IMG/VR virus record: IMGVR_UViG_3300037089_000557
DNA: 58,017 nt
Reading direction: 5' to 3' (one strand)
Source: a virus
The notes under the pieces are model-generated. The model saw only the letters and a list, made by a program, of their open reading frames with translations. It did not search any database and was not told the origin of the DNA. The translations under genes were made by a program, and so were the position numbers. Positions 35,540 through 36,323 of the stretch are shown in pieces (positions within the stretch are counted from its first letter, which is position 1; each line of letters starts with the position of its first letter).

Positions 35540-35597
35540 TGTGTCGAGGGCTCGGAAAGTTTCCAACATAGCTCATGTAATAATTAGGAATAACTAA

Positions 35598-35656
35598 GTA
35601 AACCAAAATGGTTTACAGTAGATAGAGTAAACCAGATCAGTTTACAGACTGTAAAT
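35598..35656. promoter_or_regulatory. Array of five alternating GTAAAC / GTTTAC half-sites (three overlapping palindromes)
   Basis: GTAAACcaaaatgGTTTAC ... GTAAACcagatcaGTTTACagactGTAAAt; spacing 13/16/13/11. Confidence 0.5.
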
Positions 35657-35769
35657 CAAACCATATCGGTTCAGCTCCGCCGCCTTAAATGGCCGTGGAG
35701 CTTTTGGGGTAGGTGCTACATACTCAAATGGTACGAGAGCCGGCCCTTAGGATCCGCAGGCAGCAGTGA

Positions 35770-36120
35770 CCATGACGCCAGGGATAGACCGAAGTCGATG
35801 ACAGCGGACATTGCAGCTGTTTGACATTAGGGAAAGACCTAGGTCGGAGGCAAAGCCGGACAACGGGCTAACCTGACAAGCCGGGAAAGACCGACTGACA
35901 AGCTAGGAAAGACTGCAGTCGATGGCAAGCGGACACAGCTGCCTGACAAACTGAAATAGACAGTCAAGTCGATGTACAAGCGGACAAATACACAGCTACG
36001 GACGGCGGGAAAGAACGCTGGCAGCTGGGAAATAGCAGCAAATCTCGATGGTAAGCGGAGCAAACTTATGCAGCTACCAGACAGCGGGAAAGACAGCTGA
36101 CGGCGGGAATAGACCGCACT
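35770..36120. repeat. Degenerate non-coding repeat array: about 9 copies of GGRAA(A/T)AGAC and 4 copies of GTCGATG-N2-3-AAGCGGACA
   Basis: Read directly; irregular 20-55 bp spacing; no ORF of 60 aa or more on the + strand, and the 97 aa minus-strand ORF at 35839..36132 looks spurious. Confidence 0.6.
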
Positions 36121-36122
36121 AT

Positions 36123-36205
36123 GGAGAGTCAACCCAATTGGTGATGGGACCTGCTTGGAAAGTAGGCGAGCGCAAGCCTTAAAGGTTCAATTCCTTTACT
36201 CTCCG
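36123..36205 (+). tRNA. tRNA-Ser (anticodon GGA), class II
   Basis: Acceptor GGAGAGT/ACTCTCC, D stem CCCA/TGGG, anticodon stem CCTGC/GTAGG with loop TTGGAAA, variable hairpin, T arm AAAGG-TTCAATT-CCTTT, G73. Confidence 0.7.
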
Positions 36206-36219
36206 CAAAAAGAATCTTT

Positions 36220-36309
36220 GGAAGGTTTACCCGACAGCTGACAACGGGATCTCTTTGCTAAAGAGACGAGTCCGAAAGGGCCTTACAAGTTTGACCCTTG
36301 TACCTTCCG
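36220..36309 (+). tRNA. tRNA-Ser (anticodon GCU), class II
   Basis: Acceptor GGAAGGT/ACCTTCC, D stem CCCG/CGGG, anticodon stem TCTCT/AGAGA with loop TTGCTAA, long variable hairpin, T arm ACAAG-TTTGACC-CTTGT, G73. Confidence 0.7.
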
Positions 36310-36323
36310 CAACATGAGCACAT

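Follow-up and report, generated by a model that had tools for sequence, protein, structure and literature searches.

A conserved, structured and non-coding element was found on the plus strand of the virus record IMGVR_UViG_3300037089_000557, where it was joined to a transfer RNA (tRNA) operon and built of hairpin units that belong to a wider class. The window, i.e., the whole stretch of DNA that was analyzed, comprised 58,017 nucleotides (nt), and all positions given without a contig name refer to it. We proposed, with a probability of roughly 0.55, that positions 35598-36122 are a plus-strand gene for a structured non-coding RNA of ~470-520 nt, which would be cotranscribed with the tRNAs, released by ribonuclease P (RNase P) and used as a multivalent platform or decoy. 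Among the functions that an earlier note on this DNA had offered, a small RNA locus was retained in the form of this larger RNA, whereas a replication origin, a packaging site and a promoter array were not supported.

Non-coding status and motif content

The earlier note had described positions 35540-36320 as a non-coding hub that ends with two tRNA-Ser genes. Positions 35540-36122 were confirmed as non-coding, and all of the motifs it had listed were found and were clustered there. A motif check over the whole 58 kb window showed that the GTAAAC pairs, GGAAAGAC and TCGATG..AAGCGGA were concentrated in the region. GTAAAC was located at 35598 and 35627 and GTTTAC at 35611 and 35640, with GTAAAT at 35651. 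The window has only two GTAAAC-N5-9-GTTTAC pairs, and each of them fell here. Nine motifs of the GG(R)AA(W)AGAC type spanned 35781 to 36114. This 1% of the window held 4 of the 6 plus-strand copies of GGAAAGAC and none on the minus strand, as well as all four copies of TCGATG-N-AAGCGGA (35795, 35919, 35969 and 36045). The enrichment persisted against shuffled sequence, with 59 hairpins having GAA(N)AGA-type loops at 136 AGA sites versus 7.9 (maximum 17). Since no tandem repeats were reported in the region by Tandem Repeats Finder, the array was regarded as a set of degenerate modules and not as a regular repeat.

No credible open reading frame (ORF) was recognized in the region, in agreement with the earlier reading, and the minus-strand ORF 35839-36132 was not conserved. 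The frame and length of the stop-free stretches varied among homologues, many 1-nt insertions and deletions separated even close ones, and substitutions were spread evenly over the three codon positions with no 3-nt periodicity. Coding in a missed frame was likewise not found. The long stop-free frames of the minus strand were attributed to its being the T-rich complement of an A-rich strand. In one relative, a public 91-aa "gene" call (L087 4663-4938) covers the 3' part of the element and tRNA-Ser(GGA) and is likely a mis-annotation; a covariance model could correct such ORF calls.

Structure of the element

The element consists of AT-rich leader hairpins, a unique 5' domain and an array of repeat modules (Table 1). 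A module is made of one or two UGAC-hairpins followed by a tail, (N)UCGAUG-N2-4-AAGCGGA(N')-N2-12-CAGCU. The UGAC/GAA(N)AGA hairpins were ~7 times commoner than in shuffled sequences and showed more than 15 stem variants in the clade (UAGG/CCUA, CGG/CCG, ACUG/CAGU, GCGG/CCGC, CUCUGA/UCAGAG, GAAG/CUUC and others), while the invariant part of the loop was ..AGA. In the tail helix NUC/GAN', the closing pair N-N' was a standard pair in 28 of the 31 distinct tails (13 G-C, 8 C-G, 6 A-U and 1 G-U); the shuffles gave 14.9, and none of 2000 was as high. A second tail helix, (GGY)AAGC/GCU(RCC), received modest support (mean extension of 2.03 versus 1.75, with 69 of 2000 shuffles as high). In tail 2, GGCAAGC is complementary to GCUGCC as well, which makes this tail a candidate H-type pseudoknot. 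The terminal double hairpin lay 5 nt upstream of tRNA-Ser(GGA).

The 5' domain was compared among eight sequences, in which 97.7% of the cells were paired and five pairs had changed on both sides, a result reached by 0 of 500 shuffles. When the partners were slid against each other as a control, the pairing dropped to 22-46%. For instance, P3 was AUGAUAC/GUAUCAU in L135 and UGAU/AUCG in L095. The consensus fold of this domain reached -26.8 kcal/mol on the plus strand versus -16.1 on the minus strand, and the plus strand folded better in 9 of 11 RNAs. Further, the array had an AT skew of +0.46, A being far commoner than T, and the element was co-oriented with its plus-strand tRNAs.

The leader hairpins duplicate the hairpin type of P0. 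Their counterparts in relatives differ in sequence (CUUAC/GUAAG, UUUUAC/GUAAAA and CUUCAAUU/AAUUGAGG); it is the pairing that is conserved at this site and not a word bound by a protein. The GTAATAATTAGGAATA motif was located 45-80 nt upstream of the element core in nine relatives, and similar motifs were present at 30911 and 31280 of the window. It was regarded as a putative promoter. A T7-like promoter in the last 22 nt of the element (..AATAGACCGCACTAT|GG) was also considered and rejected, its CACTAT part not being conserved in relatives.

A further word, GGTCGAG, occurred 10 times in the window versus 3.0 expected (0 of 100 shuffles as high), at 2102, 6930, 11707, 13823, 15270, 35034, 38102, 42388, 48238 and 56758, with the variant GTCGAG at 35544. 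It directly followed stop codons in this region and preceded a promoter-like TAATAATTAGGAATA motif in relatives, and it may be a phage-specific regulatory word.

Table 1. Positions of the element, its parts and the associated genes
Feature	Position	Strand	Remarks
GTCGAG	35544-35549	+	further upstream of the GTAATAATTAGGAATA motif
Promoter-like motif GTAATAATTAGGAATA	35577-35592	+	few changes across 9 related contigs
AT-rich leader hairpins	35598-35616, 35627-35645, 35641-35655 (span 35598-35656)	+	inverted repeats are the GTAAAC/GTTTAC half-sites
Unique 5' domain	35659-35779	+	five helices (P0, P1, P2', P3, P4) and the sequence CAUGAC
P0	35659-35671	+	4-bp hairpin, 5-nt loop
P1	35673-35702	+	outer stem resembles a tmRNA acceptor stem with its strands permuted
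P2'	35707-35711 with 35721-35725	+	
P3	35728-35734 with 35766-35773	+	AUGGUAC with GU-G-ACCAU
P4	35739-35741 with 35759-35761	+	GGAUCC loop (palindromic, 35750-35755)
Module array	35774-36117	+	nine UGAC-N2-4-stem-GAA(N0-3)AGA-stem hairpins; four tails and one degenerate tail copy
Tail stem-loop 1	35794-35818	+	GUC GAUGACAGCG GAC ... CAGCU
Tail stem-loop 2	35918-35940	+	GUC GAUGGCAAGCG GAC A CAGCU
Tail stem-loop 3	35968-35997	+	from the tail-helix analysis
Tail stem-loop 4	36044-36075	+	CUC GAUGGUAAGCG GAG ... CAGCU; closing pair C-G, not G-C
tRNA-Ser(UGA)	34637-34720	+	ARAGORN at -ps95 (5% lower threshold); missed at default and by the Rfam gathering threshold
tRNA-Ser(GGA)	36123-36206	+	ARAGORN and Rfam; starts 1 nt past the element end
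tRNA-Ser(GCU)	36220-36310	+	ARAGORN; same presumed transcription unit as tRNA-Ser(GGA)
eIF-1a/IF1 protein of relatives	L083 6816-7043, L087 6774-7001, L093 5064-5291, L135 5644-5871	- strand of locus	

Homologues of the element

A BLAST search of the region and the surrounding 12 kb against the cultured phages of INPHARED gave matches to tRNA-Ser only and revealed no close relative. Relatives were reached by following the downstream ORF (36324-36815) into IMG/VR and a metagenome protein collection. The element was found in 10 further uncultivated contigs (L001, identical to L002, L003, L087, L090, L091, L095, L138, L139, L135 and L137), always at the same site directly upstream of tRNA-Ser(GGA) and on the same strand. 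L135 carries a minimal form of 113 nt, and the copy of L137 is truncated by the contig end. As the homologue contigs reach 131-463 kb, they were assigned to huge phages. Two relatives, L092 and L093, have three tRNA-Ser genes back to back and lack the element. No further members of the clade were found by DNA-pattern scans of IMG/VR and metagenomes.

The element was kept across phages in which the neighboring protein is 58-75% identical. The number of modules ranged from 0 to 5: none in L135, 1 in L138, 2 in L003 and 4-5 in the others. While this number changed, the 5' core was retained, as was the final pair of hairpins.

A widespread class of tandem hairpins

The hairpin pairs of the array belong to a class of tandem hairpins that is widespread and has no entry in Rfam. 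A two-unit DNA pattern, GGAAAGAC-N2-5-TGAC-N4-9-GAAAGAC, which does not itself require pairing, matched at least 120 IMG/VR contigs. Both loops were closed by at least 4 bp in 54 of the 91 distinct instances listed, with ~55 different stems and a chance of ~0.0007 per instance. A gap-poor alignment of 33 instances from unrelated IMG/VR contigs (A6) was 94.9% paired versus 65.4% in shuffles; 80 cells had changed on both sides versus 21, and the covariation score was 0.764 versus 0.179.

The covariance model derived from this alignment (R1) matched the window at 35795-35846, 35870-35921, 35996-36043 and 36075-36121, with E values of 8e-11 to 2e-6 and the best score of 31.6 bits at 36075-36121, and gave no match outside the element at E<0.05. 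Every homologue was matched as well, while L092, L093 and Escherichia coli ssrA were missed. Since a model built from unrelated contigs matched the window only inside the element, the element belongs to the tandem-hairpin class, and it has the features that define the latter: adjacent hairpins, a (U/G)GAC linker, a variable stem of 4-6 bp and a GAAAGA-type loop. It is by far the most expanded member seen. A weak R1 match of 9.1 bits (E 0.065) was recorded at 28387-28428 on the plus strand, 10 nt upstream of tRNA-Met, where the arrangement was hairpin-UGAC-hairpin with different loops.

Among the matches listed, 9 instances lay inside transfer-messenger RNAs (tmRNAs) called by ARAGORN, at the region of pseudoknots PK2-PK4. 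Another 30 were located within 300 nt of a tRNA, all 30 on the strand of that tRNA; 14 of these 30 formed one family, 48 nt downstream of tRNA-Ser(GCU). The element obeys the same strand rule, being on the plus strand 1 nt upstream of tRNA-Ser(GGA). The remaining 81 instances listed were found elsewhere, including arrays of 4-6 units in L188, L145 and L173. In L250, a double hairpin was located in the 5' leader of a structural-type gene, downstream of a terminator and upstream of the ribosome-binding site. Rfam at the gathering threshold reported only tRNA and tmRNA on 37 class loci, and a literature search for the unit sequence returned no paper.

The terminal 20-mer TGACGGCGGGAANAGACCGC of the element was also present in ~28 contigs of termite-gut Treponema/Spirochaetaceae metagenome-assembled genomes (MAGs; L102-L134). 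Each time, it was part of a leader and lay 30-45 nt ahead of a lipoprotein-like start codon, as the unit UUGAC-GGCGG-GAAnAGA-CCGC (e.g., L109 1789-1808, minus strand). The order of these leaders was a hairpin UCCGC-UUGU-GCGGU, an AT-rich linker, the unit, a variable hairpin, AAGGAG and the start codon; most of the genes downstream were lipoprotein-like, and no Rfam family matched the leader. A 20-mer match in L112, an Alistipes MAG, was set aside because the number of non-spirochaete matches equals the chance expectation. Double-unit copies matched by R1 were seen elsewhere in L125 (358-394) and L132 (6801-6836).

Two further arrangements were observed among the class loci. L188 (minus strand, 100-700) and L145 (plus strand, 100-700) hold a large unannotated structured region with no Rfam match. 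It opens with ..CCAUGAC, continues with 4-6 UGAC-hairpin units and additional hairpins, and is possibly a further long RNA belonging to the class. In L213 (7188-7385) and 13 similar contigs (L143, L151, L183, L187, L192, L200, L202, L206, L208, L226, L227, L253 and L255), a double hairpin was located 48-81 nt downstream of tRNA-Ser(GCU) and was followed ~100 nt further on by T-arm-like and acceptor-like sequences, ACGGUUCGACUCCGU AGCUCCU, which were called by neither ARAGORN nor Rfam. The contigs of this family also hold tRNAs of ~120 nt, presumably with introns.

Relationship to tmRNA

The outer stem of P1, AGCUCC(A) ... GGGGCU, corresponds to the acceptor stem of a tmRNA, except that its 3' strand precedes the 5' strand, an order found in permuted tmRNA genes, and G3-U70 together with A73 was found in 4 of 9 homologues (L003, L087, L090 and L138). 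The same UGAC-stem-GGAAAGAC-stem tandem units occur at PK2-PK4 of the phage tmRNAs L196, L178, L169, L162 and L198, the array being an expanded string of them. A catalogue of tmRNAs includes 72 that are "permuted, no CDS" (coding sequence), and phage DS6A has a tmRNA-like RNA that lacks a tag and inhibits the host tmRNA (PMC11915505).

Several results weighed against this link. G3-U70 was replaced by G-C or A-U in 5 of the 9 homologues, the window included, and P1 was missing altogether from the minimal homologue L135. Only 9 of the 120 class matches listed lay in called tmRNAs, and the three 8-mers shared with E. coli ssrA were at the chance level. ARAGORN found no tmRNA in the element, even at -ps80; at thresholds lowered to -ps70, it produced inconsistent pseudo-calls that borrowed the T-arm of tRNA-Ser and were discarded. 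The Rfam tmRNA models (tmRNA, alpha, beta, cyano and permuted) did not match 211 nt at E<=10. No analogue of a T-loop or D-loop was found in the element, nor was a conserved tag frame: the candidate frames varied in length among homologues and ended in ..RAGP*, ..IRQR*, ..DIAAV* and ..GYYS*, and L003 lacked the segment. Because G3-U70 is variable, the T-loop and tag are missing, L135 is stemless, and ARAGORN and Rfam are silent, descent of the element from a tag-less permuted tmRNA was treated as a lead and not as a finding.

A stronger claim would make the element a functional tmRNA in two pieces, circularly permuted, that is alanylated and rescues ribosomes. The permuted acceptor-like stem, the G3-U70 and A73 of the four homologues and the hairpin units shared with phage tmRNAs would fit it, and huge phages have been reported to encode both tmRNA and SmpB (PMC7162821). 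However, such a molecule is very improbable given the identity elements lost in most homologues, P0 with its 4 bp and 5-nt loop in place of a T-loop, and candidate frames of which none ends in ..LAA. A Pfam scan of 19 ORFs of the window, which is only a part of a >130 kb genome, picked up no SmpB.

Proposed function and alternative explanations

It was proposed that transcription would begin at the promoter-like motif and run through tRNA-Ser(GGA) and tRNA-Ser(GCU). RNase P cleaves at the 5' ends of tRNAs as a part of their general maturation, and a cut at the 5' end of tRNA-Ser(GGA) (36122/36123) would free the RNA. Once freed, the RNA may serve in trans as a multivalent platform, or as a decoy, to which a factor that recognizes the hairpins in tmRNA and tRNA-island transcripts would bind. 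This factor is plausibly tied to the ribosome or to ribosome rescue, and the decoy capacity would be adjusted through the gain and loss of modules. Such a role was suggested by the conserved loops and linkers, the free stems and the variable copy number. Where loop and linker are conserved and the stems are free, there is usually a specific binding partner.

Some points count against this reading. We infer the trans-acting decoy role purely from the architecture, and the units upstream of ribosome-binding sites (L250 and the Treponema MAGs), like those 5-20 nt upstream of tRNAs, are just as compatible with a cis role. The simple hairpin count (63 versus 64) does not tell the strands apart because the stems are mostly Watson-Crick. 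Only ~9 distinct full-length homologues are available, so few events underlie the covariation of the 5' domain.

The main rival was a cis-acting leader of the tRNA-Ser operon, as single and double units are located just upstream of tRNAs and ribosome-binding sites elsewhere. Such a leader would affect no transcript but its own, either as a processing or stability element by which RNase P and other RNases are guided or held off, or as a put-like RNA that lets RNA polymerase resist termination in the structured tRNA genes. Apart from the leaders of L250 and of the Treponema MAGs, a double hairpin lies 7-20 nt upstream of tRNAs in L164, L257, L249, L148, L212 and L147, much as the terminal double hairpin of the element does. 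A 350-nt array of nine hairpins and four pseudoknot-like tails is nevertheless large for a leader, the same tRNA-Ser cluster is expressed without it in L092 and L093, and a spacer of 36-70 nt separates the element from the tRNA in L003 and L136. The occurrence of the same units inside tmRNAs, which act in trans, also points away from a leader, and the cis role was judged possible but on balance doubtful. The absence of the element from some relatives, together with its variable module number, could also be taken for decay, with a former tmRNA or duplicated pieces of tRNA drifting without function in an intergenic gap; the lost tmRNA identity elements and a weak likeness of the terminal unit to the D-arm of tRNA-Ser(GCU) (z 3.4) are in line with this. 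Such a remnant is improbable, since loops, linkers and pairing were preserved while the stems changed, the promoter-like motif was conserved, and the element was kept among phages as divergent as described above. A sponge of the CsrA/RsmA type, in which GGA hairpin loops would titrate a CsrA-family regulator, is brought to mind by the many short hairpins with purine-rich loops, most of which begin with ..GGA, and by the GCGGA of the tails. The window RNA contains 17 GGA, but this is not above its composition (12.9 +/- 2.8); ~15% of the units lack GGA (GAGAAAGA, UGAAAUAGA and GUGAAAGA), the invariant part of the loop is ..AGA and not GGA, and the Rfam CsrB/Rsm models gave no match, which leaves hardly any probability for a sponge of this kind.

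Repeated motifs and palindromes in an ORF-free stretch, with an extreme of the window-wide cumulative GC skew at ~36 kb, could also indicate a function at the level of DNA: an iteron origin, a packaging site or an operator array for a dimeric protein. The GC-skew check advised in the earlier note showed that the extreme is a maximum and not an origin-type minimum, and it coincides with the place where a plus-strand gene block (10.5-36.8 kb) meets a minus-strand block at ~36.8 kb. An iteron origin is not supported, in the absence of a fixed repeat sequence, of a recognized initiator and of a skew switch of origin polarity; the repeat stems vary and covary rather than hold one sequence, their spacing is irregular with no tandem repeat, and the purine asymmetry of the strands is strong. 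The stems and spacing also speak against a packaging site, and no recognizable terminase was found nearby. The operator suggested for GTAAAC is not supported because the palindromes are swapped for other hairpins at the same site in relatives, and a Pfam scan of the neighboring ORFs recognized no initiator or repressor. As for a promoter array, a sigma-70 scan was empty inside the array, with a single promoter-like motif upstream. The loops and the pairing were kept while the stem sequences changed, which fits a folded strand and not a sequence-specific site in double-stranded DNA; a DNA-level function is thus highly improbable.

Beyond the multivalent RNA proposed here, a broader idea was considered, which is rather unlikely. 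UGAC-stem-GAA(N)AGA would be the recognition unit of an undescribed and widespread RNA-protein or RNA-ribosome interaction, used in phage tmRNAs, tRNA-island transcripts and spirochaete leaders, and the huge-phage array would have arisen from a permuted tag-less tmRNA as a decoy that, during infection, would take up a host factor involved in ribosome rescue or translation.

The by-product of this work may possibly prove more important than the element: a very strongly covarying tandem-hairpin module outside Rfam, with at least 120 viral contigs carrying it and with copies in phage tmRNAs and spirochaete leaders. Identification of its partner could connect phage tRNA islands, tmRNA and the control of host translation.

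tRNA setting and neighboring genes

The two tRNA-Ser genes after the repeats and the tRNA-Ser(UGA) gene upstream, all three named in the earlier note, were confirmed. ARAGORN called 19 tRNA genes in the window, and tRNA-Ser genes numbered four, counting 34637-34720 (plus strand) and 8652-8741 (minus strand). A tRNA with the anticodon CUA at 16071-16146 (plus strand), labelled Pyl by ARAGORN, may be an amber suppressor; it gives a hint of TAG recoding in a part of the phage genes. The D-arm of tRNA-Ser(GCU) and the terminal unit of the element have GACAGCTGAC-NN-CGGGA in common. The repeats were also considered as degenerate copies of tRNA-Ser(GGA) and this was rejected, the local alignment being no better than with shuffles; a shared 17-mer was seen with the tRNA-Ser(GCU) D-arm only.

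The downstream ORF matched no Pfam family, and its AlphaFold model (a mean confidence, pLDDT, of 74.7) had no PDB fold match. Of the upstream neighbors, one ORF weakly resembled Peptidase_S24 and another resembled nucleoside 2-deoxyribosyltransferase; each was absent from one or more of the element-bearing relatives. An ORF was inserted between tRNA-Ser(GGA) and tRNA-Ser(GCU) in L001 (5494-5900), L091 (2379-2891) and L095 (2302-2850); in L091 and L095 it was HNH-like, and in L001 it encoded another small protein, which suggests that mobile endonuclease genes target the tRNA-Ser cluster. A 75-aa protein with an eIF-1a/IF1 domain (PF01176) was kept ~2 kb downstream of the tRNA-Ser cluster of relatives (Table 1), in those with and without the RNA element.

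Comparison with known RNAs

In the Infernal/Rfam search that the earlier note had called for, the window at the gathering threshold yielded tRNAs only and no other known non-coding RNA family. At E<=10, the only Rfam matches, on 1.2 kb as on 211 nt of sequence, were to microRNAs and at the level of chance, and the GOLLD and ROOL covariance models did not match at the gathering threshold or at E<=10.

The element and tmRNA are both encoded in phage tRNA islands, but the element has nine units instead of two or three and an additional tail motif that was not seen outside its clade in the scans made. Like CsrB, RsmY and RsmZ, it strings together short hairpins whose purine-rich loop is conserved and whose stems vary, and its copy number differs between relatives; the loop, however, is GAA(N)AGA with an upstream UGAC and not A(N)GGA. 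ToxI and the phage pseudo-ToxI are similarly phage-borne, repetitive non-coding RNAs with a changeable number of repeats. In contrast to their near-identical tandem repeats of ~34-36 nt, those of the element are degenerate and irregular, and its covarying stems point to long-term structural selection rather than recent amplification. No toxin domain of a ToxN-like gene was found in the ORFs neighboring the element.

The element is a probable large RNA of a phage tRNA island and matches no described RNA family. Large structured RNAs of this setting, such as GOLLD and ROOL, rank with the most poorly understood RNAs in biology. Both are located beside tRNA genes of phages (PMC12286853), and the element, which is ~0.5 kb, structured, phage-borne and abuts tRNA-Ser, resembles them in this respect. 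As to multimer formation, its palindromic GGAUCC loop gives only a hint. Unlike these RNAs with one large fixed fold, it is repetitive and changes its module number, and it would add to GOLLD and ROOL a third and architecturally different family of large RNAs, one that is modular and expands and contracts.

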